From Prorocentrum cordatum (lineage: Eukaryota), in assembly GCA_963575745.1 (NCBI GenBank), contig CAUYUJ010000122.1:62001-117958 (forward strand): a DNA stretch of 55,958 nucleotides, in the 5' to 3' direction. Each line of letters opens with the position of its first letter. Within the stretch, counting starts at the first letter, position 1. A program made the position numbers and the translations under genes. This document shows, piece by piece, positions 1,469 through 43,973 of the stretch. The notes under the pieces are model-generated. The model saw only the letters and a list, made by a program, of their open reading frames with translations. It was not told the DNA's origin and searched no databases.

Positions 1469-2378
1469 CGCGCTGTAGACAATCTTGCAGGAGGATGGCA
1501 CTGCGGGTGGAGGGCTTCCTGCGTGGCCCAGGCCGGTTCGGCTTTGGAGGCGCGGCGCTCAGTGAACGCCTCCGTGAACGCCGGGTCCCGACTGGCGCCC
1601 CGAGGAGCCAGAAACCGCCCCGCAAGGCCACGCGACAGGCGCTGGTGTCAGAGTCCGTCAGCAGCGGCGCTGGGAAGAGTCGGGCCAAGGCGTCCAGCGC
1701 CCTCTTTAGTCCCTCGCCAGCTCCTCCAGAACAGGGTGCACGGCCAACGAAAAGAAGAGCTGCCCCAGCGGGTCCCTCTGCTGAGCGCCAGCCTGGGGGG
1801 ACAACGCGTGTGAGCCGAAGTGGAGCTGCGAATGTTCCGCGTAGGTCCAGCTCGCCCACTGCTCCAGCTCTGGGAGGCGACCATCCACAGCTCGCAGCTC
1901 TTCGTCCCGCCGCAAGGTGCTGAAGGCGCTCGCAACATCCAGCTTGAGTACAGTGGAAACCCACGCCAAGTCCAGTTTGAGTACAGTGGAAACTAGGAAA
2001 CATTCTGCTTGCCTCCAGGGGGCCCTTGGTTTCTAGGCCGTTGACGGTTCTGCAATGGAAGGCGTGACGCCCCCACACCAAGAATCCATGGACGTCCTGG
2101 GGCCTCAGGATTGGGCTTCTTGTGGAATGTTTCTTTGTGGAAGATCTCTTGTGGTCGGGCCACTCCTGCAGAGCCTCCCTGCCTGGGTCGCGGTGGCGCT
2201 CGCGCCACTGGCGGACAGCGCGGACCTGCTGCCCCTGCGCCCAGCGGGCGGCGGCACCCGGCCGGCAGCGGCCGGCGCGTCGGCCTCGCCCCTGCCCTCC
2301 GCGTGGCCGCACAGGGCCTCGCCCGTGAGGCGACGGAGCACCTCGCCGACTGCGACCGGCCGGACGCCGCAGTCCTCT

Positions 2379-2605
2379 CAGAGCCCCGAATCATCAGGGG
2401 TAACTCGGGTCAGGGCTAACTCGGGGTCCTTTTCCGGGAATCCGAGCCCGACTTACCCCCGGACCCGAGTTACCCCGGATAACTCGGGCGTCCAGAGCCC
2501 CACAGCATCAGGGGTGACTCGGGTCAGGGCTAACTCGGGTTCCGTTTTCGGGAATCCAAACCCGAGTTACCCCGGACCCGAGTTACCCCGGATAACTCGG
2601 GCGCC
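2379..2605. repeat. Two tandem ~114-bp units, each an imperfect palindrome (ATCAGGGGTAACTCGGGTC...GACCCGAGTTACCCCGGAT)
   Basis: Units start near 2379 and 2493. A 9-bp direct repeat CTCTCAGAG occurs at 2375-2383 and 2617-2625. Confidence 0.8.
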
Positions 2606-4200
2606 CAACCCTCCTTCTCTCAGAGGATTAAAATGGTACTCCTACCCTCACCCTGCTCCCGATGCCCCCTTGTTGGGCCTCCTGGGAGGCCCTCTCGCAG
2701 ACGGCCGCACGCGCGGCAGGCGAGCTGGCGTCGAGCAGGTTCTGCGCTCGCCGCCCCGAGGGCCCCGGATAAGTGCAGTGCCTTGAGCACGGCGTTCGGC
2801 GCCAGCTCTGGTGCAGCCAGGAGCGCGTCCAAGTGCCTGAGCGGCTCGGCGGGCGCCCTTGGGTGCAGCCGCTTCCAGGCTTACGCTGTCTCCTGGGCTG
2901 GCTCGGCCAGTCCCCTGGCAGTCAGCGCCGCGCACCCCTTGGCAAGGAGACCCTCTGCGGCGAAGGCCGCGGAGCGGGCGGCCCGAAGCTCGCTGGTGGA
3001 CTGGTCGGCCGGACGGCGGCGGCGGCCAGGCTGCGTGTCGCAGGCCTCCTGCCAGACCGTCAGCCGCTCGCCTGTCTCCCAGCGAGCGAGGCGCTCCAGC
3101 CTGAAGGCCGCGAGGGCGGACTCGTGGTCCCACCTGGTGCGCGGGGGCCCGACCTGGACAGTTCTGGCCACCATCATCGGCAAGTCTGTCCAGGCAGCCC
3201 CAATGTTGTGCGCCACCACGCTGGCCAGACAACGAGTCCGAGCGCGGGACAAGGCAGCCCGGGCACGCTTGGGGACACGCTGGAGCGTGGGCACGCTCGC
3301 GGCGTGGACGCTCGTCAAGGAAGGGCGGCCGCGCCCAGCGGCCCTACCCCTTGCCGTGGCGGCCCGCTGCCCAGTGGCCCTGCTGGGGGTCCTACTGGGG
3401 CCCTTTTGGGCCGTCTTGGGGGCCACTTGGGCCATCTGGAGGCCATCTTGGGCCGTCTTCGGGCCATCTTGGGTTGCCTTCCTGCGCCGTCTTGGAAACG
3501 ATTTTGGGCATCTTGGACGCCTCGGAGAGTCCCAAAGATGCCTCAGGCTGCCCAGCGAGCCTCGGGAGGAGGGGGCGATGCACGTTCGTGGGCGCTACCG
3601 GGAAAGGGGCGAGCCTCAGAAGATGGCAGAAAACCTAACAGGCTGCACTTGGCATTTTACCTCGCCTCAGCGTGTCCAGGGGAACGGTGGCGGACAGGCT
3701 ACCTTCAGGAGGGAGGAGAAGTAACATTCATCGGAGGGCCCGGAGGAACGAGGAGGACGTCGAGCAGCGTGCACGCCCGCAGCAGAAATGTGCAGACTGG
3801 GCGCAGATGGCGTCTGCAGCTCGGCGGTGCCCCGAGGAGCGGGTGGTGCCGCTGCCTCCAGCCTCGGCCGGGCCCGCTCGGAGTGGCCGCAGAGGCCGAG
3901 GCCGGCCTGGCGCCCGCCATCTCGCAGCTGCGGCCAGGAGGCGGGCCCCCCGCTGCGGCGAGAGGCGGAACGGCGCGGTGCACTTCCTCCTCGCGCCATC
4001 GGCGGCTGCAGCGTGCCCTGGCTGGTGCACGGACGTTGGCGTCTGCCACTTGCTGCCTCAGACAGCTGCTGTTTCTCTCGCGGGTGCTTGCTACTTCGGC
4101 AGTGGCCGCTCCTCGACCTGCGACGTCAGAGTGAATTCGTGATATCTCAATGTTGCTCGCCACGTCGGTTGGCGAGGGCTCCCATCCCCCCGAAATGTCA

Positions 4201-5905: not shown

Positions 5906-6309
5906 GGATCGCCTACGGCCCCGGGGGAAACCGTGCACCCCAGGGCCCTAACTGAAGTCATATGATCGAGGTCGATTCGGAGAGGTTGCCTTCGTGTTCT
6001 TCGCGCTTGTTGGATCGGTGCATCCCTGGGAGGGTACCCGTGGATGTTCGGTTTGTTTTGGCCGACGGAGGCTATCATGCTCTTGAAGGGTGTTCTCCTG
6101 GACCGGGTCCGACTGTATGGATCATTGGGGGTTCAGGAAGGGCTCTGGCCTTCAGGCCGCTCCTTGGATCTATGTCGGGGAGCGTCTTCGTGGTCGAGGC
6201 CTCCCGTGGCCATGGAAGCCCCTCTTCGCTTCCTGCTCGGCAACCCTTGCGCGTAGCACGATGGTTCTGAACCATTCGCGGTGGCAGATCTAGGGGAACA
6301 AGCAATGGC

Positions 6310-7488: not shown

Positions 7489-9872
7489 TAGCGCTCGCCG
7501 TCGTCATGAGCACTGCCCCGCGCGGCGCGCCTCCGGAGGGCTGGGGGACGCTGCGCGGCTGCACGTCGAGCGCCCTGCGCGGTCGCGTGCCGGGGAGGGT
7601 GCGGAGGATCCCCCGTCCCCGCCTCCCCGGGCTGCCCCCTCTCAAGTGACTGACTCGGGGGGGTGGACAGAATCCCCACCCTGACACGTCGATGGGTGAT
7701 TTGTCCGTTTTCGGTCCTCGGCCGTCCTTTTTCTGGGCTTGCGCCCGCCAGGCTCGGGCCCGAGGCCGCTCTCACCAAACCACGCTCTACTGAAGGGGGT
7801 GCGGTCCATCCCCGAGTGGCCCCCGCGTCGCCTGCGCGGCCTCACCCCCGTGACGGGGGCGCTTTTCCCGAGCGCGGCGGGCAGATCGAGGCGCCGAGGG
7901 GCGATGCTCCGACCCGCTCTCGGCGACTGCTGCCTTCCCACCTTGAGATTAGCCTCCTCGGAGTCCGAGGGCGGCGTGCACGGTCGAGAGGACGGCTGGC
8001 CTTTTCGGCGGCCGACGCACTGGCGGCGCACGGGCGACGAATGCGCGCGACGCACCTCCTGTCGCGAAGGGGGGGGGTAAGCACGCCGGTCGTCTTACTG
8101 GGCCTTCACACCTCGGACCATCTACGTTCAGGATCGCGCCGCCTGCGCGTAGGGCGGCAGTGTGGCCTCAGCAGCTGCTGCCGTGCGCCGACTGCACGCC
8201 TCGCGGGGCGCGCGCCGCGGGCGGCCTGAATCTACACAGAGAGGTCTTACATTTGGTAGATGCTAGAGTGGTGCAGGGCGCCACCACGTGCGCGGCACCA
8301 AACACATGGCACCAGGCGCACAGCACATCACGCTTGCTCAAGGCACCGTGCAGGCGGCGCCACACGTGCCATGCCGCGCACACGGCGCGAGGCCCAATGC
8401 ACCACGCACAACCAAGCTGTAGTACATCATACTCGGCACCACGTCCACCGCACAACGAACGCGGCACCGCGCACGCGGCAACACGCTGAGTTGGCCACGC
8501 ACGGCAGACCGAACACATGGCACCACACAGACACACACACACATTCACACATACGCACACACACACGCGCACACGGTGGCGGCGGGCACGCGTTGCTACG
8601 CACGCGGACCTGGATGTCACAGCCACGCAACGTTGAGCACACTGCAGTACGGCCGCCACAACATGTCTTCATGCACACGGCGCCGAATACATGGCCTGAC
8701 GCATTTGTAAAACATATTCCCTCCCTTGCCGCGAATGTTGCTTAGAAGGGGCATTCGGCGAACATCCCAGCAACACACACGCACAGCACCACTGACGCTT
8801 TATCGCGCGCACAGCACCACACACGCGGCACTACGCACGCAGCGCCACGCACACAGCACGCACAGGGCATCACACTCGCAGCATGGAGCCGCGCACTCAG
8901 CACCATGCGCATGGTACCGAGCGCACGGAACCGTGCAAGCGACACATTATGCTATCGCACGGCACCGTTCGCACGGGAAACGGATTTTTGGGCGTATCGC
9001 AGTGCTTCTCTCGAGACCACGAGATTTTCGCTCGTTGGGAGACCTCCACTCCAGAAGAGGTTCTGAACTTCTGACTTCTGACTGTCAGAGTGCGCCTTTT
9101 CGCCCGGCCCGTTCGTTGGGCGCGCTGTTTCCTTCCCCCTGCCCTGCATGGAGTTTCCGTTCCTACAAGCCTCGTCAAAGATCTCCTGACATGGAAGCTG
9201 AAATCCTGGAGCACGACGCTTTCGGGCACTTGTCGTCAGAAAGCGCGTCGGCCTTTGGACATCACCGCGCGCGAGTCGACAGGCATCCATCAGCCCTGGA
9301 GTAGCGCTGACCCCACAATCACCGAATCCAGAAGTCTTCTGTTCATTGCGAAGGCTTTACGGCCAGTGTCCCCGACCCTGAGAACGGCGAAGATGAAAAC
9401 GAGGAGGGGCAGGGGGAGGAGGATGAGTGGGAGGCGGAAGAAGGGTGGGGGAGGTGGATGAGGGAGGGGGAGGAGGGGGGCGAAGGATGCGGAGGAGAAG
9501 CAGGAGGAGAGCAGGAGGCAGAGGAGATTTGCTTATATCTGACGAGGCCCGTAGGATCCCTCCCTCTCCTGCGCTCTGGGCACAGCTCGGCTCCGGCGCG
9601 CCACGCCGGGAACCCCCTCGCCTCGGGAGTGTCTCCCCTGCCCGCCCACGCATAAGGGCTCCAGAGCCCCATCCGGGGCGGGCGGCCTTCTCTAAGGAGG
9701 GGAAAAACACAGACGCAATTAATCGTCGATTCCCAGGAAAATATGGGGAATATTTCATTTGTGTGTATAAATTTGTGTGTCCCTGGCCCCTTTCACTTTC
9801 CCGACCCCCCCCTCGGCGCCCGCAGCGGCCGACCGCCGGCCGCGCCCGCCTGCCGGGCTGGGCATCAGCTCG

Positions 9873-12966: not shown

Positions 12967-14219
12967 TAACGGCCGTCCCCGGGGTGGGGGGGAGGGGGGG
13001 TCATGGGGGCATGGCCGGTAACGTCGCGATTCGCGCCGGCACCGTCTGAGAACGAGCTACTCCTCTCCATTTCCAGACGGCGCAGACGCGAATCGTGGCG
13101 TTACCTGGGAACGCGATCGCTAATCGTTGCAAAAACGTGCTCCAGCTAATAATTGAGACCTCTACAAGTGGGGGTCGTTCACGGTTGCACTTTTGGTCCC
13201 GCGTCGAGGAGACAGGGTCGATACGTCGACAAGTTTGGCAGACGATCGGTTCAGCGATGCGGGGGGAAGTCGCAGAAGCAGAATTCCAAAGAGGCCCGCA
13301 GAGGCCCACCGCATGCCAAGCGAACTGGCCCGGACTCCGCCTCAGAGTCGCCCCTCCCCCGGGGACGCCTCCCGGACCCTACTCCGACCAAGAGCCTCGA
13401 GGCAAGTCTGGCCATAGCGACATGGCGCCCCCCCAGAGGGCTCGCAAAAGGTCACAGCATCCCAGGGATCCGACGCTCCAACACGAATTGGAGCGGCGGG
13501 ATCTTGGCAGGGGCCCTCGCCGGGCTTCGGGGGCGAGGGCGAAACACCGGCCCCGGGGAAGGGGTCTGGATCTGTGCATGGGGCCCACGCGTCGAAAACA
13601 TTGGACCAGCCGGATGTCTGGGATCGTCCGTCGTCGTGTTTTTCTCACCTCCTCGCGTCTCCCAGGGAGCGAGGCCCCGTCCAGGCCTCTCTCGGGACGA
13701 AGAGCCCGGCCCCTGGGAAGGGGCCCGCCGGACCCTCCAGACCCCTCCCCGGGTTCGGGCTCCTCATATCCCGAGGAGTCGCTCCAGCTTTATGTACAAC
13801 GCGAGGACTTCGGGCCTTTCCCGGATGCCTCGCTCTCCGACCGCCTCCCCCGCAGTCTGGCCGCCGCGCTCGGCCCGCCCGGCGGCCCGCCGCCGCGCCC
13901 CGCCGGCGGGCAGCGGGCCGCCGCCGCCGCCGCGGCGGCGCTGGCGGCGGTCGGCGAGGCCGGGCCTGCCGAGGGCCCCCCCGCAGCCGGCCCGGCCCGC
14001 CGCCGCGCCCCGCCGTGGGGCAGCCGGCCTCCGCCGACGCCGCGGCGGCGCGGCGGCGGGCGGCGAGGCCAGGGCCGCCTGGGGGCCTTCCCCCCCTCCT
14101 CCTCCTCCTCCTCCTCCTCCTCCTCCTCCTCCTCCTCCTCCTCCTCCTCCTCCTCCTCCTCCTCCTCCTCCTCCTCCTCCTCCTCCTCCTCCTCCTCCTC
14201 CCTTCTCTCTTTCTCCTTG

Positions 14220-17044: not shown

Positions 17045-17360
17045 TAGTTACGTGGAAGTTGTGCTGCTTGGGGCTGCCAGGAGGTTGGTTGGTCGAGTAG
17101 CGTTCGCGCTGAGGTGTCTCGCTCACTGCGATGCCAAGCAGGGTTGATCGACGTCGACGGAGTCGTGGTGCGACTTCTCGCATAATGTTGCAGTTGCAGG
17201 CCAACATGGCCACGTAAGTGGTGCTAGTCGTGTGGGCGTGCGAGGCAGATGTCGTAGCCGAGGTGGCGCGAGCTGCCAGACGTGGCAGTACAGGATGGTG
17301 CAGCGTCGCGCTGAGTGAGAGAACGAAATCGAGGAGCAATCGGTGTCAAGGGTAGGACTC

Positions 17361-17485
17361 GGCATCGCTCGGACGTGTGCATTTTTCCTTCGGCGAGGAC
17401 CATCGAGGAGCATCCTCGATCATTTGGCGAAAACGCCACGCACGAAACCGAACAATGTACGGGAAATGGACGTCCGAGCGATGGC
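17361..17485 (+). mobile_element. MITE-like family D, copy 2
   Basis: Same TIR and interior as 12102-12225. Confidence 0.75.
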
Positions 17486-17689
17486 CAGAGGAGGGCGTGC
17501 AGAGATGATGGAGATATGCCAAAGGATGCGGTGGGAAGTGGGAAGATCGTTTCTCACAATCGTGGCTGGCCCCCGAGGGCTGGCGCACTGCCACGGGCGA
17601 GTGGGCCCGAGGCTAGCCCCCCCTCGCCCTCCTCCTCCTCCTCCTCCTCCTCGTCCTCCTCGTCCTCCTCCTCCTCCTCCTCCTCCTTC

Positions 17690-17711
17690 TCCGTAGCCAT
17701 TTTGGCTCAAG
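17690..17711 (+). other. Perfect dinoflagellate spliced leader exon at the 5' end of a retrotransposon
   Basis: TCCGTAGCCATTTTGGCTCAAG matches DCCGTAGCCATTTTGGCTCAAG at 22/22. It is followed by ATG rather than an SL-RNA GT donor. Confidence 0.95.
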
Positions 17712-17857
17712 ATGTCTGACTGGGGGGGCTGCGAGCCTCCAGGCAGAAAGGATACCGCTAGTCCGCGGCCAGCCTACCGTCTTACTGTGAGCTCCTGGGG
17801 GAGCGCCATCCGCTTAATCTACTTGATTGCCGCGGCGGCGCTGGGGAGCAGTGCAGG

Positions 17858-19042
17858 ATGGCAACCAGGCGGCCCTTTTGGGCTGCAGGCAGCGGCGGCG
17901 GCAGCAAGACGCCACGCGGCGGTCCAGTCGGCAGCGGCAACGTGCGTGACAAGCCCGACTGGTTCTGCTGCAAGGACGGCTGCAAGACTGCAAAAGGCGA
18001 GCGCTGGTGGAACCCAGGCTCGTCGATGCGGTGTACAAAATGCAAGTTGCACAAGGGCGCCTGTTTCGGCAGCAATCGACCTGCTGGTGGAGGTGCCCCC
18101 TCGGCGCGCGCGCCCAGCGTGGCAGACACGCGTGCCGAGGCAAAGTATAAGAAGATCTACGAGGACAAGATCGCGGCGCTGGAGCAAGAGCTGCGCAGCA
18201 AGTCCTCGCAGGACGGCGACATGGAGGTCGACGGTTCAGCAGTCGAGGCCCCAGCTGCAGGCGCCGCCGCCGTGCGGAAGCGCGCCGACAAGCTGGCGGC
18301 CGAGATCAAGCTGCTCAAGGGCCGCGACGACATGGATGGCATCTGCAAGGGCGCCATCGACTCCTTCCAGAAGGAGTTGGACGAGCTGCGGAAGAAGCTG
18401 CACGACGCCAAGCCCTCGGACGCCAAACTCCAGATCGCCCGACGGGACGTCAAGCGGAAGGAGGCTGCACTGGCCAAGGCAGGAGACAAGCTGGCGGAGC
18501 AGGTGGAGGCTGTCGCTGCAGCACAGCGTCGCCTGGAGGAGCTCAAGACCCAGCGGGGGCAGTGCGAGGCCGAGCTCGGCCGCGCCAAGGCCGTGGTGCA
18601 CGAGCTGGTGGCTGCTGATGCTGCTCGGGCTGGCCCAGCCGCCGACGGTGGCAGCGAGACGGGAGCGGTCGCCCACGCGTTCGGCATCAACAAGGAAGCG
18701 CTGGTGGCCAAGTGCGGGGAGGGCGGCTTCGGCGACCACGCCGAGGCGGTTTCCAAGCTCCTGGAGGAGTTGCCGCCGCAGCTGGTGGTGCCCGAGGAGC
18801 GCCCTGCTCCCCCCCCTCTGGGCGCGGCGAGCACTGCGGCCGCCCAAGCCGTGCCCAGCGCCGAAGACCCCATCGGCAAGGCATCAGAGGAGGCGCTGCG
18901 CGCCGAACTCGACAAGCTGCGGCCCTCCGACCTCGCGCCCGCCATGCCGAAGGACTTGGAGGGGATGCGCGCTGTTGCTTCTCGCCTTGCCGCTAGCCCG
19001 CTCATCGGGGCCGCAGCGCGCATGCGAGCTGAACCGTACTGA
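17858..19042 (+). CDS. Retrotransposon ORF1 protein (394 aa): RanBP2-like zinc finger plus coiled coil
   Basis: DWFCCKDGC-x8-NPGSSMRCTKC at 17960-18043; long heptad-rich region (KIAALEQELR...LAAEIKLLK...ELDELRKKL); GC3-biased codons. Confidence 0.85.
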   Translation: MATRRPFWAAGSGGGSKTPRGGPVGSGNVRDKPDWFCCKDGCKTAKGERWWNPGSSMRCTKCKLHKGACFGSNRPAGGGAPSARAPSVADTRAEAKYKKIYEDKIAALEQELRSKSSQDGDMEVDGSAVEAPAAGAAAVRKRADKLAAEIKLLKGRDDMDGICKGAIDSFQKELDELRKKLHDAKPSDAKLQIARRDVKRKEAALAKAGDKLAEQVEAVAAAQRRLEELKTQRGQCEAELGRAKAVVHELVAADAARAGPAADGGSETGAVAHAFGINKEALVAKCGEGGFGDHAEAVSKLLEELPPQLVVPEERPAPPPLGAASTAAAQAVPSAEDPIGKASEEALRAELDKLRPSDLAPAMPKDLEGMRAVASRLAASPLIGAAARMRAEPY

Positions 19043-19052
19043 CCTCGTCACC

Positions 19053-22000
19053 ATGGCGAGCCTGAGCGAGAGCAACAGCACCGTCGTCGCGCCCGACCTG
19101 GTCCAGGAGGACGCGTGGGAGGCGGAGGACGAAGCGGCCCGTCACCTCCTAGGCGAGGCGGCAACAGCTGCAGGCAGCCGCAGCGCGGCAGTCACCAGCG
19201 AGCGGGGGCTCAAGTCCCCTCCAAGGGGCACTGGGTCCCCCCTCCCACTCCAGGTCGACTGCGACTGGAATGCCGTGGCGCTGGAGCAGGCGAGGCCCGT
19301 GGAGCAGGTGGCTCCGCGCCCGCGCGGCCCTGCGGGGCAGGTGGTCTCGCGGCCGCGCTTGGAGGCCGAGGCGGCGCTGGCTGCGCTGGAGAGCGAGGCG
19401 CTGGAGCAGCCGCGGCCCGTGGGGCAGCGGGCCCCGCGCCCGCGCGGCCCCGCGGGACAGGTGGACTCGCGGCCGCGTGGGGAGGCCGAGGCGGCGCTGG
19501 CTGACCTGGAAGGAGCTGCACCACCTGCTCTTCTTGTGCATTCTGTCGTCGCAGCAGCTTCAGGCGGAGCCCGTGGTGCAGGGCCAGCGCGTCACGGATC
19601 GGTTGCCGTCGGGGCCCCTGACCAAGGGCACTCACTGTTTGGGGTCCAGGCGGGGACCGGCTATAACGACGGGGCTGCGGCCCTAAATGCCACCCCAGCC
19701 CCGATGCGTGATGGGGCCCAAGCAGCACCGCCCTACGAGATGCTGGATGGCGCCAGGGTGCCCGCAGGCCTGGTCTTCGTCGAGGGCCATGTCGAGGAGC
19801 CCCACGCGGCCCAGCAGCGCGCACGGACGGCGTCGCAGTTCGTGGACCTGGTGCTCGAGCTGATTGGCGAGATCGTGCTCTACCTCAAGCGGGTCGGCCT
19901 CCTGGCGGTCGAAGATCTCGGGTCAGACCAGCACTTCATCAAGGACACCAACTACAGCAACGCGTTCCTGCAGGTGGGGCAGGACGGGCTGCTCGACATG
20001 CAGGTCGCGTCGGAGGAGGAGCGCCGCAGGGTGCGGGTGCTCACGGCCCCCCTCCCGATCCTCCCGGCCACGCTGGAGCGGCGGAAGGCTGCGCCCGAGG
20101 TTGCGAGGGCGAAGCAGGTGGCGGAGCCCGCAGCAGAGGGTACCGACCCTTCGGGGCACGCACTGCTCACTGCGGGCCGAGCCACCAGGACGGCAGAGAG
20201 TGCCGACCCCTCGGGGCACGCACTGCTCACCGTCCGAGCTGCACGGCGGAGGGTGGCCAAGCCGAAGAAACCGAAGATAGATCACACGCTAGCCATCACG
20301 GCGAACGGCACCACGTGGTCGAGCCTCACCGACCTGCTGCTGGACGTGGAGGGGCGCCGAGCGGACATCTTCTTGGGCCAGGAGACCCATCTGTTCGGCG
20401 CCGAGGCGTGCGCGACTCAGGAGGACTGGGCGAAGCGAGCCAAGTGGAACCTGCAGCTGGACCCAGCAGTACCCACAGGACGTGGAGGCACCAGCGGCGG
20501 CTTGTGTATGGCAGCGCAGCCGTGGCGAGGGCTGGCGAGCTACCCATGTGTGAGCACGAGGTTCAGCATCGCACGTGGCCGAGTACAGCTGAGATGTTGG
20601 AAAGGATGGCTTCCAGGAGGCGTGGTAGTGGCCAACGTCTACCTGCACCACAGCGAGGGCATGACGGACAGGAACAGGCTCCTGGTCAACCTCCTCGCAC
20701 GCGAGCTGAAGCGCCTGGCTCGGCCTTTCATCATCGGCGGCGACTTCAACATGCACCCCACGGAGCTGGCCAAGTCAGGGTTCTTCGAGAAGCTGATGGC
20801 CGAGCCGATCTTCACCCAGGAGGCAACGCTCGGCGACTTGGCGGAGGGCTCCGTGCTGGACTACTGGGTCCTGCCGAAGGCGCTCGTGCCGAGGGTCGAG
20901 TCCTGCTTCGTGATTCACACCACCACCATCAAGGATCACCGCCCAGTTGGGCTCAGGCTGAAGAACGGTGCGATAGAGGACACGATCACGGTCCACAAGA
21001 CCCCCGCCAGCTTTCCAACTACACGGCCCATCGGGCCTGGTCGGGAGGTGGTTACATCCTGGGGTGCGGCAGTGGCGGCCCTGGGGGAGACGGAGGGCTG
21101 TCAGGAGGCCTTGGCGAACGGGTTCGCGGCCTTCATGAAGGGGGCGGAGGAGGAGCTGGGCAGCTTGTTCCACATCCCGCTGGATGACATGCCGAGGTAC
21201 ACGGGGCGAGGGCTGGAGCCGCGCTTCATCAAGGTACATCCCACGAGGCGGAACAACGCGGCGGTGGCCAAGGCATCCCCCGAGGCGCGCCAGGCCCTGT
21301 GGCTGCACGACCGACTCCTTGAGCTCCAGCGTGCGTACGAGAGGGGCGAGCCGAGGCACCGCCAGGCAGCGAAGCGGCTACTCGACACCCTGGAGCACTG
21401 GAACGGCTCCCTCAAGAAGGCTCAGGACTGGCACTTCTTCGAGGCGTACTGGCAGCGGCTGCGCGAGCTCACGATCGACGACCTGGCCGAGCTGGCGGAG
21501 CAGGCCCAGAGCGTGAGCGTGCGCCTCTCCAGAGACTTTGAGAGAGCGCGCTGCCGATCGTTCGACGCCTGGGCGAAGCAGGCCACGTTGAACGGGGCGG
21601 GCCTCGCCCACAAGTGGACTCGTGGGCCCGCGGGAGCGGGGCCAGGGCTGCTGGCCAACGGCGTGGCAGCGGATGTGCAGGACGCCGCCGACAAGTTCTG
21701 CGCGGACTGGCTCCAGCAGGTCTGGAACGTCCGCGAGCCCATGAAGGACACCAGCTGGGGCGAGATCAAGCACCGCGTGATGGACGCGCCCTCGGTTGAA
21801 GCCATCAGGGCCGCGAGCAGGAAGTTCAAGCATCGGACGGCCTTGGGCTCCGACGCGTTCCACCCACGGTGGTTCGCGATGCTGTCCAACGAGGCGCTCG
21901 AGTTCTTAGGCCAGCTCATGGTGTACATGGAGAGGGTCGGCAATCAGTGGAAGCAGCTGACCACCATCATCGTCTTCCTCGCCAAGAAGGAGGGCGGGGT

Positions 22001-25000
22001 GAGACCCATCGCCTTGCTAGGCGGATTCCTTCGGATATGGACAAAGGTGCGGCGGGCACAGATGCAGCAGTGGGAGGGCGAGCATGACCTGCCGTGCTTC
22101 CACAACGCGAGCGGCAGGACGGCCGAGAGGGCCGTCTGGGATCAGGCCGTCTACCAGGAGTGGGCCCTCAAGGTAGGCATGGTCACGGCCTCGAACCAGC
22201 TCGACATGACCAAGGCCTACGAGAGAGTGGGCCACCAGACGCTCTGGGACGAGGGCTGCGCGAGTGGCGCCAACCTGGTGCTGCTACGCGCTAGCATCAG
22301 CATCTATGCAGGCCCACGGCGGTGCAAGGTAGACGGCGCGGTCTCGTGCGTGGTCGAGCTGGCCTGCAGCATCTTGGCGGGTTGCGGCTTCGCGACATCA
22401 TGGCTGAAGGTCCTCATGTTCCGCAGCCTGCGGCTCTTTGGCGACATGTACCAGTGCATCCAGCTGTCCGCCTTCGTCGATGACATCACCGTCCTCTGCG
22501 TCGGGTCGCAGCGCTTCCTGCTCAAGGTAGCGGCGGACGGCTTGCAGTACCTTATCGAGCTCCTCCGCAAACTGGGCTTTGAGGTCAACGGCTCGAAGTC
22601 CACCATCGTGATCACCTCGGCGTACGCTGGCAAGTGGATCGCAGACAGGGTGTACACGCACACGGCGCAGCGGATCCAGGTAAAGCAGCACCACCGCAAC
22701 CTGGGCGTAGACTCGATGGTGGGGACGAAGCGGCGCACCAAGGTCATGGACGCGAACTTCGACAAGCAGCGGCGCCGCCTTGGACGGGTCACGTGCCTCA
22801 AGCGCCAGGGCGCCGAGTCGGGCAAGGTGGGCAAGATGGGCATGCAGCCCGCCATGACGTATGGCACCAGCGTGCCCGGCCGCAGCGACTCGCGGTTGCA
22901 CAAGATCAGGGCGGCGGTCGGCGCAGCGATGTTCACCGACACGGCGAGACGCTCGCTCACGCTGTCCTTCATGCTGGAGAGGGGCAAGCAGGACCCAGCC
23001 TACGCCGTCAACGCGGCGCCGCTGGTGGAGTGGGCGAAGGCGGTCTGGACCAAGCGCATCCCCACCCACATTCTCCAGGGAGCCCTGGACCGAGCCGAGG
23101 CGACTCAGAGGAACAAGCTGCGCCCACGGGCCGCCGTGGTCGGACCAGCGGGTGCGATGCTTGCCACGGCCAGGAGGATAGGCTGGCAGGTTGTCTCCGC
23201 CAGCCGGTGGATCTCCCACGACGGCGAGGGGCTGGAGTTGAGCGAAAGCGTGGGGCCACGGTCGATCAAGGGATTGCTAGATTCAGCCATTGTGAAGTGG
23301 CAGTATGCTCAGATAAGTGCGCATGAGGGGCTGGATCACCTTAAGGACGGCATCCACCTGGAGCCAGTGCGCGAGGTCATCCGCAACCTCGAGAAGCACG
23401 GCCTGAAGCAGGAGGCGCGCGGCTTGCGCTCCACCGTCATTGGGGCGCAGTGGCCCCAGCAGCAGCTGCACGACGAGGGCCTTGCCGACTCCCCACTGCG
23501 CCAGCGCTGCGGCGAGGCCCCTGGCACGCTCCCTCACCGCCACGGTGCATGTGTGGCGTGGGCGCGTGAGCGCAGGGAGAGCGAGATCGGCCAGGTCCAC
23601 TTCCCCGAGGGCGCGCTCACCGCGCTGCAGCAGGCGTTCTGGGGCAGGTGCCTGCTGCCCAACTGGACCGCGGGGCCGAGGCCGTCGCGAGCGTGGCACA
23701 CGGTATGGGGCATAGAGGTGCCAGGAGGTTTCTTCATGGACGACGGCTTCGTGGACGGATCGGGACGCTGCCTCGCAGGCCCAGACGACATGCGGGTGGG
23801 CTTCGGCTGCGCGTCAGTGGACCACCTCGGGCGGGTCACGGGAGCGTGCCACGGGCCGTCTCCTGGCTGGCTGCAGGAGGTGGGCGAGGGCGAGCTCTTC
23901 GCGGTGGAGGCCATGCTGCAGCACGCCGTTCCCCCGTTCACCGTCTACAGCGACTACCAGGACCTGCTCGACGGCATCGCCGCAGGGCCAGCTGCTTGCT
24001 GCGCGCCTGGCAAGGCCTATGCCGAGCAGTGGAGGAGGATCTGGCGGCTCATCCAGGACATCGGGCAGGACCAGCTCCAGTTCCGCAAGGTCAAGGCTCA
24101 TCAGGACATCACCCAGCTCGCCTACGGCTCGGTGGAGCGCCGCCTCGCGCTGGGCAACAACGCCGCCGACTCCGAGGCCAAGATGGGAGCGGCCTGCCAT
24201 CCATGCAGCTCTCAGGTCGAGGCGGAGCGCTTCGCCTCACAGCAGGAGGCAGTGGGGCGCATGGCGGGCTGGGTGGGCCAGGTGTGCGCGCTAGCCAACG
24301 GCGGCCCGAGGGACGCCACGGGCAAGCAGCTGCTGACGAGGGCCCCGCGGCACGAGGAGCAGCACGGCATGGTGCGTGCCAAGCGCCGCCGTACGCAGCC
24401 ACGCGGGCAGCCGAGGCCCGTGCCCAGAGGAGTCGACGCGATCCCGATCACGGATCACGACGACCGCGATGGCGACACCAGCGGAGGCAGGTCGCCCCAG
24501 CGCGGGCCTGCGGTGCTGGCGGCGGCGGCGCTCGCGGCTGCAGGCTGGAGTACTGGCCTGGCGGGAGGCTCCGACGACGAGCCCGACGGCGAGGGCCTGG
24601 CCCAGCGTGGTGGCGGAAGCGGCAGGGTCGCAGCAGACCATGCGCCGCCCCGCTGGGCCCAGCAGCTGGCGACGAGGCAGGCATGCGGCGGCGACCCCGA
24701 CGGCATGGCGGACGGTGGCGGGTCACCGACACCAGAGGGCGGCTGGGCAGCGCTGGACGCCCAGCAGGGCGGCCAGGACAGCGGCAGGCAGGCCGTCCAC
24801 GGTGGTGAGGACAGCGACGACGCGCCGCTGATGCAGCCGCCCAGGAGACAGGCGCCCCCCCGCAGGCAGCAGCTCTTCACAGCGAAGGGCGTGCTGGCTC
24901 GAGGCGGCGACAAGCGGCCCCGCGAGGCCGAGGCGCGGCAGGCAGCGCAGGAGGCGGGCAGCAGCCAGGCGGATGGCAGGACCGCCAGCCAGGACGGCGT

Positions 25001-25481
25001 CGGTCGCCGTGTGGCGGCGAGGATGCAGCGCGAGCGCGGGCCACAGCTCTTCATGCCCGACGACGTAGGCAGCGCGGAGGGTCAGCCGCTGCGGCGCCGC
25101 TCGCAGTGGGTCGGCAGCACCAGCGCATTGCCGTTCGCATGCGACCGCTGCGGGGTGCGCTGCAGGGGCCGCGCCCAGCTGGAGGCGGGGCTGTGCCGCG
25201 GGACGCCTGCCGCTGTGCTGGCGGCCGACGCGTCGCACCGCCTGATGACCATGGGCGACGTGGTGTTCTGCTGCTCCTGCGGGGCAAGGACTGGAGGAGG
25301 TGCGGCCATCCTGCTGGCGGAGAAGTGCCTGGGGAAGGTCGCCAACAGCACGGCTGGCACAAGGCTGAACAGGATGAAGGCGGGGAAGCACCCGCTCACG
25401 GGCCGCCTCATCGGCGAGCCCGTCCCGCTGGTGGCGCGCGACGAGGCGGCCCCAGCGGGGGCGGCGCTGACGACGGCGTGA
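19053..25481 (+). CDS. Retrotransposon ORF2 polyprotein (2142 aa from ATG 19053): APE endonuclease, reverse transcriptase, RNase H, Cys-rich C-terminus
   Basis: APE motifs ITANG, GQETH, NVY, IIGGDFN, LDY, DHRPV (~20290-20960). RT motifs KKEGGVRPIALL, LDMTKAYERV, FVDD (22473-22484), NLGV. RNase H motifs FVDGS, GELFAV, VYSDY, KVKAH, GNNAADSEAK (~23745-24183). The start is inferred from the ATG 10 nt after the ORF1 stop; the frame is open back to ATG 17712. Confidence 0.93.
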   Translation: MASLSESNSTVVAPDLVQEDAWEAEDEAARHLLGEAATAAGSRSAAVTSERGLKSPPRGTGSPLPLQVDCDWNAVALEQARPVEQVAPRPRGPAGQVVSRPRLEAEAALAALESEALEQPRPVGQRAPRPRGPAGQVDSRPRGEAEAALADLEGAAPPALLVHSVVAAASGGARGAGPARHGSVAVGAPDQGHSLFGVQAGTGYNDGAAALNATPAPMRDGAQAAPPYEMLDGARVPAGLVFVEGHVEEPHAAQQRARTASQFVDLVLELIGEIVLYLKRVGLLAVEDLGSDQHFIKDTNYSNAFLQVGQDGLLDMQVASEEERRRVRVLTAPLPILPATLERRKAAPEVARAKQVAEPAAEGTDPSGHALLTAGRATRTAESADPSGHALLTVRAARRRVAKPKKPKIDHTLAITANGTTWSSLTDLLLDVEGRRADIFLGQETHLFGAEACATQEDWAKRAKWNLQLDPAVPTGRGGTSGGLCMAAQPWRGLASYPCVSTRFSIARGRVQLRCWKGWLPGGVVVANVYLHHSEGMTDRNRLLVNLLARELKRLARPFIIGGDFNMHPTELAKSGFFEKLMAEPIFTQEATLGDLAEGSVLDYWVLPKALVPRVESCFVIHTTTIKDHRPVGLRLKNGAIEDTITVHKTPASFPTTRPIGPGREVVTSWGAAVAALGETEGCQEALANGFAAFMKGAEEELGSLFHIPLDDMPRYTGRGLEPRFIKVHPTRRNNAAVAKASPEARQALWLHDRLLELQRAYERGEPRHRQAAKRLLDTLEHWNGSLKKAQDWHFFEAYWQRLRELTIDDLAELAEQAQSVSVRLSRDFERARCRSFDAWAKQATLNGAGLAHKWTRGPAGAGPGLLANGVAADVQDAADKFCADWLQQVWNVREPMKDTSWGEIKHRVMDAPSVEAIRAASRKFKHRTALGSDAFHPRWFAMLSNEALEFLGQLMVYMERVGNQWKQLTTIIVFLAKKEGGVRPIALLGGFLRIWTKVRRAQMQQWEGEHDLPCFHNASGRTAERAVWDQAVYQEWALKVGMVTASNQLDMTKAYERVGHQTLWDEGCASGANLVLLRASISIYAGPRRCKVDGAVSCVVELACSILAGCGFATSWLKVLMFRSLRLFGDMYQCIQLSAFVDDITVLCVGSQRFLLKVAADGLQYLIELLRKLGFEVNGSKSTIVITSAYAGKWIADRVYTHTAQRIQVKQHHRNLGVDSMVGTKRRTKVMDANFDKQRRRLGRVTCLKRQGAESGKVGKMGMQPAMTYGTSVPGRSDSRLHKIRAAVGAAMFTDTARRSLTLSFMLERGKQDPAYAVNAAPLVEWAKAVWTKRIPTHILQGALDRAEATQRNKLRPRAAVVGPAGAMLATARRIGWQVVSASRWISHDGEGLELSESVGPRSIKGLLDSAIVKWQYAQISAHEGLDHLKDGIHLEPVREVIRNLEKHGLKQEARGLRSTVIGAQWPQQQLHDEGLADSPLRQRCGEAPGTLPHRHGACVAWARERRESEIGQVHFPEGALTALQQAFWGRCLLPNWTAGPRPSRAWHTVWGIEVPGGFFMDDGFVDGSGRCLAGPDDMRVGFGCASVDHLGRVTGACHGPSPGWLQEVGEGELFAVEAMLQHAVPPFTVYSDYQDLLDGIAAGPAACCAPGKAYAEQWRRIWRLIQDIGQDQLQFRKVKAHQDITQLAYGSVERRLALGNNAADSEAKMGAACHPCSSQVEAERFASQQEAVGRMAGWVGQVCALANGGPRDATGKQLLTRAPRHEEQHGMVRAKRRRTQPRGQPRPVPRGVDAIPITDHDDRDGDTSGGRSPQRGPAVLAAAALAAAGWSTGLAGGSDDEPDGEGLAQRGGGSGRVAADHAPPRWAQQLATRQACGGDPDGMADGGGSPTPEGGWAALDAQQGGQDSGRQAVHGGEDSDDAPLMQPPRRQAPPRRQQLFTAKGVLARGGDKRPREAEARQAAQEAGSSQADGRTASQDGVGRRVAARMQRERGPQLFMPDDVGSAEGQPLRRRSQWVGSTSALPFACDRCGVRCRGRAQLEAGLCRGTPAAVLAADASHRLMTMGDVVFCCSCGARTGGGAAILLAEKCLGKVANSTAGTRLNRMKAGKHPLTGRLIGEPVPLVARDEAAPAGAALTTA

Positions 25482-28400
25482 TGATCGAGGGCGGCGTGCC
25501 GCCCAGCTCGGGCGCTGCTGCGGCCGTTCGGCCAGCTGGACGGCGGCGGGTGGGAGCTGGGCGGCGCGCGGCCACAGGCGCAGCGCGGCGGCGGCCAGCG
25601 CCGTGCCGCGCGTGCGCCGCGGGGGGCTGGCGGCTGCGGCCGTAGGCCCGTGCTCGCCCGCGCGGCGGCGGCGGACGGCGCCGTGCCGCGAGGGCGTGCC
25701 GCGCCCGCGGCGGGGCGGCGGGGGTCGTCGCGCCGCGCGGCGCTCGGACGGCGCGCCGAGACAGACGGCCCGCCGCGCAGGGTGTGCGCGCTCCTCCTCC
25801 TTCTCGTCCTCCTCCTCCTCCTCGCCCTCCTCCTCCCTCATGCTCCTCCTCCTCCCCCTCCCCCCCTCCTCCTCCTCCCCCTCCTCCTCCTCCTCCTTCT
25901 CCTCCTTTTCTCGCCTCCTCCTCCCTCATGCTCCTCCTCCTCCTCCTCCTCCTCGTCCTCCTCCTCGTCCTCCTCCTCGTCCTCCTCCTCCCCCTCGCCC
26001 TCCCCCTTCTCCTCTTTCTCCTCCTCCTCCTCCTCCTCGTCCTCCTCCTTGTCCTCCTCCTCCTCCTCCTCGTCCTCCTCCGTTTTCCAGGCTGTCATGG
26101 CTCGTCTGGGCAACTCTTTGCGAACGGATTGAACCGCCGCCTCGGGTCATCTTTGGGCCGCCTGATGACACGTGGAACGCTCCTAGCGCCGTCCGGCGAG
26201 CGTACTGGGAGCATTTTGCGGGGGCCAGGACTGGGTTGACGAACGTATGCTTCCCATCCTCCCCCTCCGCAATTGCGCGATGTTGCCGCCTCAGGAGGGG
26301 AGATCTGCGCATACGGGAAACGTCCCACGCGTCTGGTGCGTGAGAAGACATGGGATGTGTGTGTGCGTCCTTGACATTCGCGTGTATGAAATGGATGGCC
26401 GCTCAGAAGACGAGATTATTCTCATGAGTGCAGTCCACTTGATCTCTCGATCGTGTGAGCTGACTGCAACTCCGTCCACTCATCTTTGGGAGTCTTCCGA
26501 TTTCATCTCCAGCTTTAGTGGGTAGAGCGCCCAGTCGTACAGAAGCAGTGGGCAGAGGTGAACAGGATGAGCCGAGGAGACTCTACGTGGCATGCAGACT
26601 TCGGGCCTGGATCCTTTCATGTCCGCTCCAAGGTGTCGGCCGAGTCGCCAGAGGACTCGTCGGAGGACTTGCTGGCGATGTCGGAGGCTGCTCCTCTCAA
26701 GCCATGGCAGATGCGCCGTCATGTGAACTGAGTTCCGAGAATGGCTTGCAGAGCACTTTGAGGCACCATACTGTGCTGCACTGTTCTCTGTGCTCCATAC
26801 TTGGTGAAGCGGAGGCGGCTGGGGTGCACTACTACACTGTGTGTGTGTGTTCCCATCCTTCCCGCGTTGCTGAATCCCCGCTGTCTCTCCGCTGAGCCGC
26901 GCGCCCGCCTCTCCTTTCACGCCTCCCGCCCCCTCTCTTCCCATTCATGTCGCTGCCTCTGCGCTGCCTGCTGCATGCCGAGGCTGCGCTGCCGTTGCCG
27001 CGCACACCTCGCGCAGCTCGTGCCCAATGGGGAGCTCCATCTGCGGCGCAGGCGGGGGCGCCCGCATGGCGCCACCCCGATTTCGGCGTGGATCGTGCCC
27101 CATAGGGAGCTCCAGCTCCGGCTCCAGTGCGGGCGCCCTCATCGCGCTCAGTTCTTACATTCCCGCGCACCCCCTTCCGTGCTACTTTTGGCGAGGGCCT
27201 TTCCGTGCCCATTGCTGGCGCGTCCTCCCGTTCACTTGAAGGCGCTTGGAAGAAAAGGGGAACTGCATCAGCGCAGGAAGGCGGGAATGTAACCACCAAA
27301 CATGCTCACTGGATTGGGGCCTCACGATCTTGCAGAATGCGCACATGGGCGTCATGGCACCGCGAGAGCGAGACGCACACGTCTGTCGGAAAGGTGTTTT
27401 GTCATACGTGCGCCCGTGCGTACTTGTACGCAGTAGATGCACACGTGCGTACGTGTCCTTCCATGCGTACCGTTCACAGGTGTGCGTACGCATGTGCTTG
27501 AACACTTGGAACACGCCATCGGCCGTTCGAGTCATTCACCTTGGTCCTTTGAGCTTCGTGTTCAACTGGGGTGATACATCTACATGAATAGAAAGTGAAA
27601 GAGAGGGGATAGAAGGAGAGACAGAGCGAGATAGATAGAGCGAGTGTGTGTGTGTGTGAGTGAATGAGAGAGAGAGGGAGAGAGAGACTGATTGGCAGAC
27701 TGACTGACAGACAGGCATGCCGACAACTACTGGTGACAAATCATTGCTCGTCGTCGTTCTCATCGTTTTCCCCCTGTGTTACCTTTACCCTTTCCTCATA
27801 TAGTCTATTCCTTTTCCTCGTTCTCGCCCTGCCCTGCGAACTCTTCCCTGTCCCCATTGCCGTTTTTTGTTGCGGAGGTGCTCCTTGAAGGGCTCCTTGG
27901 GAGCATCACGGAAGCTTGTCGAGGCCCTCTGAAGGCCTCCTTGGCGCCTCTTGGGGTCTCTAGGGGTTTGTCGGGGCCACCTCGCTGCCAACCGCGGTCT
28001 CCCTCAACGATGGGGTCAATCTTGGGAGAGCTTTGTGTGGCGTGTTGGGACCATCTTGGGGCTCTGTTGGACCGTCTTTGGGCTCTCTTCGATTTTGCTG
28101 GAGGCCATTTGGCGCGTTCGGGGGGATTTTCGGGGCCTCTTAGGCGGTCGCGGCCGTTCAGACGACTGAGGCGCCGAGTATGCCAAAATCGCAGAGCTGG
28201 TTTTCCATGACACTCGCAGTTTCTGCATTTGGATGGCTCCTTGGGGATCTTTCCTGTGGGTCGTCTATGAGCGTCCTGGAGGCGTCTGGGACTGCTTTGG
28301 GCTCCTCAGGGGGCGTCCAGGAGGCCCGGGGCGGCTTGAAGGGGACCAGGAGGAGGAGGAGGAGGAGGAGGAGGAGGAGGAGGAGGAGGAAAAGGAGGAG

Positions 28401-28778
28401 GAGGGAGGAGGAGGAGGAGGAGGTGGAGCAGGAGGAGGAGGAGGAGGAGCAGGATAAGCAGGAGGAGGAGAAGGAGGAGGAGGAGGAGAAGGAGGCGTCT
28501 GGGACTGCTTTGGGCTCCTCGGGGCAGTTTGGCCGCCCTCCAAGGCCGCGCCGCTCCGGGCGTGTCTTTTGAGCCCGGCCGGGGGGGACTTCCGGGAGGC
28601 CGGGAAGGCCGAGGGAACCCTTCGCAGGGGGCGTCCAGGAGGCCCGGGGCGGCTTGAAGGGGGACCAGGAGGAGGAGGAAGATGAGGAGGAGGAGGAGGT
28701 GGAGGAGGAGGAGCAGGAGGAGGAGGAGGAGGAGGAGGAGGAGAGCAGCTGGAGGGGAGGAGGAGGAGGATGAGGAGG

Positions 28779-42443: not shown

Positions 42444-43848
42444 TAGCCGCTGCGCTCGTTCCGCCGGCCTGTATTATGCCATCGCTGGCGTTTGCTTGCG
42501 CGTTCGCGGCTCGTGCGGCGCTGCGCCTGGCGCTGGCCTTTTTTTTCCGGATGCGCTGCGACAGCAGGCATGCCGGCGAAGTAGTTGCTTTGGAGCTTGT
42601 CGTGGGGGTTCTGGCCTCTGTTGTCCCGCCGCCATGCCTGGGTTGTGGGTCAGAGTCTTCAGGGATGCTTCTTGGGGTCTCTTCGGGGCGCTCTTGGGGT
42701 CGTCTAGAGGGCAGTTTTGGGACCTCTTGGGAGCCTCTTGGGAACCTCTTGGGAGCCTCTTTGGGTCCTCTTGGGCCTTCCTGGAGGCCTCTTGGGGGCC
42801 GTCTTAGGGGCCCCTTGGGGATTCCTGGGGGCTTCATGGAGCCGAGGGCTCGAAATGTTCGCTCGGGTCCCCCGTCTGGGCTCCCTCTTGGAGCCGGCTT
42901 CGGGGCCTCTTGGGCCATTTTTGGAAGCCTCTTGAGCCGTTTTGGGCCCTCTTGGGTCGTCTTGGGGCCCTCTTGGAGTCCTATTCGGCCGTGTTGGGGC
43001 GATCTTGGGGGCCTCTGGGGCCGTCCTGGAGTGTCGGGCGGCCGAAAAGGCGAGAACGCCAACATGTTTCAGACACTGGAGGAACGTAACAATTTTGGCC
43101 TCTTGGGGGCCTCTTGGGAGTGCTCTTGGAGGCCTCTGGGGGCGTCTTGGAGACCTTGGGCCGTCTGGCGGCCGTCTTGGGCGTCTTGGAGTGATCTTCG
43201 AGCGTCTCGGACCCTTCTTGGAGCGTCTTGAGAGCCTCTTGGGGCTCTCTTGGCCCGCCTTGGGGCGGCTCCAGGAGTTGCGGCATCTTTGACGCGAACG
43301 TCCAAGGAGTGTCCCGGGAGTGTCTCGGGGTATTGTTAGACCAGGGACCCCAACGGGCTGCCACAGACGCGCGAACTAGAAATATTAGAAATCTGCTGCC
43401 AGAGATCGTGGCACGGCTCCGGCCCGTTGGATCGGCGAATTTTGGAGCAAGGCTTCGCTTCGGGATGAGAAGCTTGCAGGATGGAGGCAGCACGCCCGCG
43501 GGGGGGGCCTTGCCGGATCACCTCGCGGCCCGGCAGCCCCAAAATACCTCCACCTCCCGCCGGGGCTCCCGGGCGGGCGCGCGGGGCCGTGGCGGCGTGC
43601 CGATGCTGAGGTCCTGCTCCTGAGGGGGGAGGGCGGCTGCTGCTGCTGCTGCTCCTGGTTCTCCTCGTCTTCGCCACCTCCGTCGCCAGAACTCAGTCGT
43701 CGCCGTAGTCGCCGTAGCCGCCGCCGCCGTCGCCCGTCGTGGTCGCCGTCGTCGCCGCCGTCGTCGTCGTCGTCGCCGCCGCCCTCCGCCGCCGCCGCCG
43801 CCCTCCGCCGCCGCCGCCGCCATCGCCGTCGCCGCCGCCGCCGCCGTA

Positions 43849-43922
<74 letters not shown>

Positions 43923-43951: not shown

Positions 43952-43973
43952 TCCACAGCCATTTTGGCCCAAG
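43952..43973 (+). promoter_or_regulatory. Relic DinoSL (19/22) and predicted trans-splice acceptor upstream of a retrogene
   Basis: TCCACAGCCATTTTGGCCCAAG, preceded by the pyrimidine tract CCCCCTGCTTTTCCTTCCGTC and located 73 nt before ATG 44047. Confidence 0.85.

Follow-up and report, generated by a model that had tools for sequence, protein, structure and literature searches.

Dinoflagellate genomes have been shaped by massive retroposition of messengers tagged with the spliced leader (SL). Retrogenes that carry the dinoflagellate leader (DinoSL) were reportedly described by Slamovits and Keeling in 2008 as a form of "mRNA recycling." SLACS, CRE, and CZAR in trypanosomatids and NeSL-1 in C. 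elegans are non-long terminal repeat (non-LTR) elements that insert into SL RNA genes and encode a restriction-like endonuclease; the SL beside them is target DNA. Waldo, Mino, Kibi, Koshi, and Dong, which belong to the R1 and Tx1 groups, are long interspersed nuclear elements (LINEs) that target microsatellites. Here, we describe a LINE that starts with a DNA copy of DinoSL and lies inside a microsatellite. The element resides in a 55,958-nucleotide (nt) stretch of the Prorocentrum cordatum genome (contig CAUYUJ010000122.1, positions 62,001 to 117,958 of the forward strand), which we call the window. It raises the general question of how a LINE can preserve its entire 5′ end where promoters are few and trans-splicing is obligatory.

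The element is an intact 8.1-kb non-LTR retrotransposon with an apurinic/apyrimidinic endonuclease (APE)-type nuclease. We consider it probable, at roughly 0.78, that this copy is a LINE in a (CCT)n microsatellite that was reverse-transcribed, as far as the cap-proximal end, from an SL-trans-spliced LINE messenger. Its first 22 nt (TCCGTAGCCATTTTGGCTCAAG, positions 17690-17711, + strand) match DinoSL perfectly (22/22 nt). The 21-nt leader core has one exact match in the window, and 100 dinucleotide-preserving shuffles of the sequence yielded no match at ≤3 mismatches. The leader is followed directly by ATG and not by a GT donor, whereas several SL RNA genes that we recovered from public contigs, using an exact-leader scan of genome_contigs, read leader plus GTAC. 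No SL RNA intron was found at either flank, the DNA beyond the 3′ (CCT)n being unique and free of intron-like sequence, and Rfam and tRNA scans of the window returned no match. Since the first 22 nt are a copy of DinoSL, the template would have been a mature LINE messenger that had received its leader by host trans-splicing.

The flanks define the insert. Tandem Repeats Finder (TRF) called an upstream (CCT)n array at 17628-17692 (21.7 units, 90% matches) and a longer, more degenerate downstream array (96 units, 77% matches), and CTCGTCCTC (CGT) variant units are common to both. Because the microsatellite and its variant units agree between the two sides, the flanks read as one (CCT)n array split by an insert that spans 17690-25790. 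As TCC, the first 1-3 bases of the leader, is also a (CCT)n unit, there is ≤3 nt of microhomology at the 5′ junction, and the junction is ambiguous by that amount. The leader copy contains AG dinucleotides at 17695-17696 (internal) and 17710-17711 (terminal). A sequence-only reading of the window had claimed that the element begins exactly with the 22-nt DinoSL, that its flanks are (CCT)n, that neither an SL RNA intron nor a GT donor follows the SL or appears at the 3′ flank, and that the SL holds AG dinucleotides; our results agree on each point. The features of the locus, with the basis for each, are as follows.

17628-17689, + strand: 5′ flank, (CCT)n microsatellite, upstream part of the split target array (TRF; carries CTCGTCCTC variant units).
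17690-17711, + strand: 22-nt dinoflagellate spliced leader in DNA form, with which the insert begins (sequence; shuffles).
17712-17857, + strand: leader region between the SL and open reading frame 1 (ORF1); the ORF2 frame opens here, at ATG 17712-17714, which corresponds to the first AUG of the SL-capped RNA.
17712-19052, + strand: ORF2 frame, free of stops across all of ORF1; overprinted, with an Arg/Ser/Pro/Trp-rich product (codon shuffles; composition).
17858-19042, + strand: ORF1, 394 amino acids (aa), a Cys4 zinc-ribbon-like motif followed by a coiled coil (codon-position GC; one relative).
19053-25481, + strand: ORF2, 2142 aa (ATG 10 nt past the ORF1 TGA).
20328-20897, + strand: APE-type endonuclease domain (PF03372, Exo_endo_phos, E=6.4e-6, aa 873-1062 of P0001).
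21984-22613, + strand: reverse transcriptase (RT) domain (PF00078, RVT_1, E=1.1e-7; FVDD at 22473-22484).
23748-24191, + strand: RNase H-like domain (PF00075, E=0.007, which misses the Pfam cut-off; alignable with the RNase H region of L141, a second LINE described below).
25134-25280, + strand: C-terminal Cys-rich motif (C..C consensus plus an invariant C in the alignment of relatives).
25482-25790, + strand: GC-rich 3′ untranslated region (UTR) with terminus CGCAGGGTGTGCGCG and no A-tail (sequence).
25791-26081, + strand: 3′ flank, degenerate (CCT)n, downstream part of the split array (TRF).

ORF1 lies in a different frame from ATG 17712, and it shows the element's coding pattern, since its GC content by codon position (0.71/0.53/0.81) resembles that of ORF2 (0.70/0.52/0.85). 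The Cys4 motif of ORF1 maps to 17957-18043; its coiled-coil matches were weak only. Within the endonuclease, a GGDFN motif is encoded at 20736-20750. No restriction-like endonuclease family scored at E≤1 in the C-terminal 359 aa of ORF2. The pre-endonuclease part of ORF2 also contains a 120-nt tandem duplication (19277-19510), whose 2 copies are 87% alike and in frame.

The exact-leader scan of genome_contigs returned 20 stretches, one of which, L141 (G001:C12), is a complete LINE. L141 is a 9096-nt GC-rich contig that was binned in a bacterial metagenome-assembled genome (MAG). It is organized as follows.

1-116: upstream repeat, (AGAGAGAC)n/(AG)n (sequence).
117-137: 21-nt leader core, preceded by C, the leader's own first base being absent or replaced.
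231-1343: ORF1, encoding a zinc finger of the RanBP2 type (E=1.4e-7) plus a coiled coil.
1696-3756: middle ORF, 686 aa, no Pfam match.
Ending at 8968: ORF2 frame of 2535 codons, with APE (E=5e-9), RT (E=5e-11), and RNase H (E=1.2e-5) domains.
3′ end: A6, then (GA)n at 9005-9074, then unique DNA.

Codon-position GC identifies three real ORFs in L141, in three frames. The family is unrelated to that of the window. The two ORF2s share 25% identity over the RT, the ORF1s are not alignable, and the middle ORF of L141 shows no similarity to the pre-APE region of the window element. A 3′ motif, CGCAGGGT, is shared by the two LINEs, but it occurs 5 times in the window and is a weak link. What they have in common is the layout: one simple repeat on both sides, the leader first in the insert, and no donor. 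A leader relic is absent from both LINEs: within 200 nt past the leader, the closest relic-like match has 4-5 mismatches in 15. As the same layout recurs in an unrelated family, trans-splicing of LINE messengers and their full-length copying back into DNA, in at least two families, appears to be the only economical explanation of these sequences. That the window copy arose from its own trans-spliced LINE messenger is well supported. The sequence-only reading had proposed this origin, and it is borne out by the position of the SL at the first base of an insert in a split microsatellite and by the SL-first layout of L141.

In the sequence of events that we propose, host trans-splicing would add DinoSL to the LINE messenger from a longer primary transcript. 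The 5′ end of the transposition intermediate would thus be set by the host trans-splicing machinery and not by an internal promoter at base 1. Reverse transcription of the SL-capped messenger would then run to the cap-proximal end, and integration would favor microsatellites, with microhomology at the 5′ junction.

We searched for relatives of the window LINE at several levels. A library of cluster representatives gave 5085 matches at E≤1e-3, of which 385 reached ≤1e-30; the highest full-length identity was ~33%, and a protein database contained five ORF2 relatives of nearly the same length, at ≤28% identity. ORF1 had one database relative (P0002; 41% identity over 96% of the length, E=4.9e-64). 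No PDB chain was matched in a single-sequence search; a profile built from the relatives matched the PDB R2 RT (1.8e-5), ExoIII-type nucleases, the L1 endonuclease chain 2v0s, and RNase H. From these comparisons, the element belongs to a deeply diverged LINE group. Protein searches revealed no relative of ORF1 in viral_contigs or metagenome_contigs, none of P0004 in metagenome_contigs, and none of the ORF2 core in genome_contigs or viral_contigs. When the ORF2 core was compared with 401 genomes of the order of G001, the genome that holds L141, only G001 matched. In IMG/VR, 119 stretches contain an exact SL, and no LINE relative is encoded in any of them.

Although the window itself contains no second copy of the element, contig pieces from four public runs match it at 88-99+% likeness, and individual sites show several variants. 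Run X1 contributed 1968 pieces, 334 at ≥99%, 641 at 95-99%, 824 at 90-95%, and 169 at <90%, counted over the whole of 17100-25830, including the upstream flank but excluding the repeat stretches 17615-17701 and 25787-25830. The nine indels shown comprise three of 3 nt, two that form a compensating -1/+1 pair 2 nt apart, three single-base changes in ORFs, and one in the 3′ UTR. Of 24 substitutions listed within ORF1, 12 leave the ORF1 protein unchanged, and no stop arises from any of them in the ORF1 or ORF2 frame. The spread of likeness, together with the pattern of indels, points to a family that probably has several diverged copies, some of them apparently still under coding constraint.

Near-identical contig pieces would fit recent activity. 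However, X1 is possibly the sample from which the window came, and its pieces at ≥99% may therefore represent the same locus. This consideration weighs against our interpretation of the copy's origin, as do three properties of the locus itself: the 5′ junction of the window family is read in this one copy only, the copy has no poly(A) remnant, and a target-site duplication cannot be delimited where both flanks are the same microsatellite.

Two further regions were examined as possible parts or copies of the element. The similarity between 25698-25900 and 14002-14206 (78%) was rejected as a truncated copy, as it consists of GC-rich low complexity and (CCT)n. Just upstream of the LINE's flank, at 17361-17485, contigs of all four runs pile up with A-rich loose ends and summed depths in the thousands, the depth being a sum over organisms. 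This segment does not belong to the LINE; it is a distinct short repeat or low-complexity element of very high abundance.

The microsatellite flanks and a polymerase frame that is open over ORF1 are additions to the confirmed observation of the SL, and both deserve follow-up. Simple repeats of period 2-6 cover ~9% of the 56-kb window, where CCT/AGG arrays occur 19 times and in both orientations. Beside the 17 arrays of this kind that do not flank the element, no LINE 3′ end was found, which argues that the split array is the target and not a tail of the element. In both LINEs the same simple repeat lies on the two sides, (CCT)n in the window and (AG)n/(GA)n in L141. We also considered leader sites outside SL genes in genome_contigs, of which 11 have ≥30 nt of sequence upstream. 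Four of these 11 abut a simple repeat (L120, (GT)n; L123, (TCA)n; L133/L141, (AG)n; L135, (GACA)n; binomial P ~0.013 against 9%), a test that is confounded because contigs break at repeats, because L123 looks chimeric, and because the 9% background comes from the window and the sites from other genomes. L123, on which bacterial genes are present, is a probable chimera. As a lead, these counts suggest that retroposition in these genomes may favor microsatellites.

Repeats of another kind also adjoin (CCT)n in the window. The segments 5906-5940 and 47760-47793 (- strand), and likewise 28300-28347 (- strand) and 28620-28666 (- strand), form near-identical pairs, each member of which begins immediately past a (CCT)n array as read on the CCT strand. 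The 5′ ends of other repeated elements may likewise lie at (CCT)n.

The sequence-only reading stated that both ORFs are open. ORF1 and ORF2 are indeed open, but the statement had to be extended to three nested facts, the third being that the ORF2 frame stays open through ORF1 up to the SL. From ATG 17712 to 25481, this frame runs for 2589 codons, and the nearest upstream stop is a TAG inside the leader. Only two ATGs lie within 17690-18000, at 17712 (ORF2 frame, first triplet after the leader) and at 17858 (ORF1). Over the 394 codons of ORF1, the ORF2 frame has no stops where 7.1 are expected (P=2.5e-4, 20000 codon shuffles), and the third frame has 5 where 10.9 are expected. When we divided ORF2 of the window into five chunks, observed and expected stops were 4/6.2, 12/16.1, 13/13.1, 11/13.4, and 3/5.3 in one alternative frame and 4/7.7, 2/6.2, 6/4.3, 3/4.6, and 1/5.3 in the other, mostly near or below expectation.

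L141 has the same property. Its ORF2 frame lacks stops over ORF1 (10.4 expected, P=5e-5) and over the middle ORF (10.3 expected, 0/10000 shuffles), while the remaining frames contain 4 stops versus 3.3 expected over ORF1 and 26 versus 17.2 over the middle ORF. In either family, one of the first two AUGs on the SL-capped RNA opens ORF1 and the other the polymerase frame. In the window element, the AUG of the polymerase frame precedes that of ORF1, and its 5′ UTR is the 22-nt leader only; in L141, the order is reversed, with the polymerase frame beginning at ATG 236, 5 nt past the ORF1 ATG at 231.

We think, from these counts, that the depletion of stops in the ORF2 frame is real. It may reflect selection for translation of the polymerase from a 5′-proximal AUG, by alternative initiation or leaky scanning, which would yield an N-terminally extended polymerase. 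Several observations speak against such an extension. A good-context ATG (19053) lies 10 nt past the stop of the window ORF1, so ordinary termination-reinitiation could make ORF2 without the upstream frame. The overprinted N terminus (P0001 residues 1-447) has no match among database proteins of 1423-4531 aa, and the ORF2 frame of L141 contains a single TAG (1355-1357) just after ORF1. In addition, the codon-shuffle null ignores dicodon bias, and the other alternative frames in ORF2 chunks range from ~0.2 to 2 times expectation, with one reaching 0 stops against 6.25 expected.

Leader copies also occur outside the two LINEs. A second copy in the window (43953-43973, + strand) differs from the SL by 3 transitions, keeps the internal AG, and is older; it lies 30 nt past a (GCC)n/(GTC)n array (43717-43922). 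It is followed, on the same strand as the LINE, by a 686-codon open frame (44005-46062; 671 codons from ATG 44049) with a coiled-coil-type look, and the locus is probably an SL-tagged retrogene. A Pfam scan of 38 long ORFs outside the LINE in the window gave none that passed the curated cut-off. Two GC-rich contigs from one genome, G002, begin with a microsatellite, then the full leader, then an ORF (L120, positions 1-60, (GT)n and 485 aa; L135, positions 1-60, (GACA)n and 316 aa). We rejected both as LINEs, since tblastx against the two LINEs gave only composition-driven noise. In L128 (~5980-6060, - strand), a lone 21-nt leader with nothing attached has the same 19-nt sequence on both sides; the SL exon may have retro-inserted here by itself and duplicated its target site.

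A further set of leaders came from IMG/VR (L001-L119, mostly GVMAG- contigs), where we counted 126 distinct exact copies in AT-rich giant-virus MAG contigs. Each copy lies behind an AT-rich conserved block, the base before the leader is A in 122 of the 126, and a fixed GT donor is absent throughout. The median distance to the next ATG downstream is 47 nt, and an ORF of at least 100 aa follows in 94 of the 126. From this arrangement, it looks as if giant-virus genes carry the host leader hard-coded at their 5′ ends; our literature search found no paper on a hard-coded leader in virus genes.

If the window copy was made from a trans-spliced messenger, the RNA that was trans-spliced could come from more than one kind of source, and the missing relic cuts both ways. 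As neither LINE has a relic, either both are first-generation copies of a master without an SL, or the terminal AG of the leader is used in every generation. In the first case, one or a few source elements would sit within a transcribed gene array, downstream of an ordinary trans-splice acceptor, and none of the SL-bearing copies, the window copy among them, would be reused. The lack of a relic in two of two elements is the simplest expectation for first-generation copies, and no upstream signal is shared by the two elements. However, the master itself, if retrotransposed, should carry an SL unless it was 5′-truncated by a few bases, and the spread of likeness in X1 (169 of 1968 pieces at <90% and 334 at ≥99%, upstream flank included) suggests several generations or subfamilies. 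We put the chances of a master copy somewhat below even.

In the second case, a form of the self-renewal suggested by the sequence-only reading, SL-bearing copies would themselves be sources, and read-through RNA would be trans-spliced at the terminal AG (17710-17711), restoring the SL and the body in each round with no need of an internal promoter. Since trans-splicing removes everything upstream of the acceptor, a promoter-less LINE would inherit an acceptor only if the SL copy, which ends in AG, supplies it. Repeated use of the terminal AG should settle at exactly one SL and no relic, as is the case in two unrelated families. Genomic SL copies can evidently be re-spliced in dinoflagellates, as excerpts of two studies describe relic SLs in retrogene transcripts (PMC7245778, PMC12014239). 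According to the same excerpts, however, re-spliced genomic leaders typically keep a 15-nt relic, which means that the SL-internal AG was used (PMC7245778, PMC12014239). Re-splicing at the internal AG would give SL, relic, and body in that order, and neither LINE reads so, even though the first AG past the pyrimidine tract of the window copy is the internal one at 17695-17696. The surroundings of the two leaders also differ. The sequence-only reading stressed that the SL follows a pyrimidine tract contributed by the target; this holds for the window copy, where the 100 nt upstream are 80% pyrimidine, but it is not general, as the corresponding 100 nt of L141 are 7% pyrimidine (93% purine) and contain 43 AG dinucleotides, leaving no common upstream signal. 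Judged by the sequences, the mechanism is plausible, but we hold it only tentatively as the answer for these elements and would expect it to fail more often than to succeed.

A broader reading would join these strands. Promoter-less LINEs would have their 5′ ends set and capped by host SL trans-splicing; the SL that they carry would supply the acceptor AG for the next round; the polymerase frame would be kept open through the gag-like ORFs for translation from one of the first two AUGs (dual coding); integration would occur in microsatellites; and the same machinery would make the SL-tagged retrogenes that fill these genomes. We regard it as unlikely that all parts of this reading hold together.

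The SL-first layout could also have arisen without a trans-spliced LINE messenger. The RT could have switched templates, from the 5′ end of an uncapped LINE RNA onto SL RNA or another messenger, or the assembly could be chimeric with cDNA at this locus. SL RNA is abundant, and the lone SL in L128 lies between two copies of a 19-nt sequence. Mammalian L1 is known to switch templates at its 5′ end, U6-L1 chimeras being analogous. However, a switch onto SL RNA would have copied its intron too, the junction falls exactly between exon and body in two unrelated elements, and a matching microsatellite on both sides favors one clean insertion over misassembly. We consider this explanation very improbable. 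Site-specific insertion into an SL RNA gene in the manner of SLACS/CRE/CZAR or NeSL-1, the alternative named in the sequence-only reading, by which the SL would be target DNA, is hardly credible: the SL does adjoin a LINE, as in those elements, but the full 22-nt exon passes into the element with no GT donor where real SL genes read SL plus GTAC, (CCT)n takes the place of an SL gene promoter upstream and precedes unique DNA without intron-like sequence at the 3′ side, the endonuclease is APE-type with no restriction-like family scored in the C-terminal 359 aa, and L141 has the same layout in a different microsatellite.

The origin that we favor, in which a trans-spliced LINE messenger was reverse-transcribed in full, bears on how SL-tagged retrogenes are made. 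In the portions of the DinoSL retrogene papers available to us, retroposition and retrotransposition are treated separately (PMC12014239, PMC7245778), and the source of the RT for SL-tagged retroposition is left open (PMC12014239). An excerpted preprint finds no functional overlap between genes with DinoSL relicts and RT genes (preprint 10.1101/783902), and an excerpt of another study describes the LINEs of Suessiales as ancient remnants (PMC8045281). An intact SL-tagged LINE that encodes both APE and RT links retroposition with LINE activity and provides a concrete candidate enzyme. Its specific features are the SL-first layout, found in two unrelated families, the microsatellite flanks, and a polymerase frame that is open over the upstream ORFs. 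We found no description of an SL-capped LINE, in dinoflagellates or elsewhere, in Creative Commons (CC)-licensed PMC articles and bioRxiv preprints, taken without supplements.

How does this LINE compare with the known systems? Like SLACS/CRE/CZAR and NeSL-1, it is a non-LTR retrotransposon joined to an SL sequence in an organism that trans-splices; unlike them, it has an APE-type endonuclease and carries the whole SL exon within the insert, and no SL gene is present. Since insertion into an SL gene and a restriction-like endonuclease without APE were both looked for and neither was found, the window LINE is not an SL-gene-specific LINE. With L1Tc and ingi, it shares a genome in which messengers are SL trans-spliced and transcription is polycistronic. 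Excerpts on those elements report that the Pr77 promoter drives transcription from their first bases and yields unspliced transcripts (PMC1874656, PMC8190864), whereas the dinoflagellate elements carry the SL, so their transcripts would have been trans-spliced. The microsatellite-targeting LINEs of the R1 and Tx1 groups are likewise APE-type with the same simple repeat on both sides, but the two dinoflagellate elements occupy different repeats, (CCT)n and (AG)n, each family being represented here by one copy. A further parallel is with DinoSL-tagged retrogenes, in which, according to excerpts of three studies, a genomic SL at the 5′ end marks a reverse-transcribed, trans-spliced messenger (PMC6050394, PMC12014239, PMC7245778). 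Here, by contrast, the tagged RNA is that of an autonomous retrotransposon itself, the leader is single and not part of a relic stack, and the insert lies within a microsatellite.

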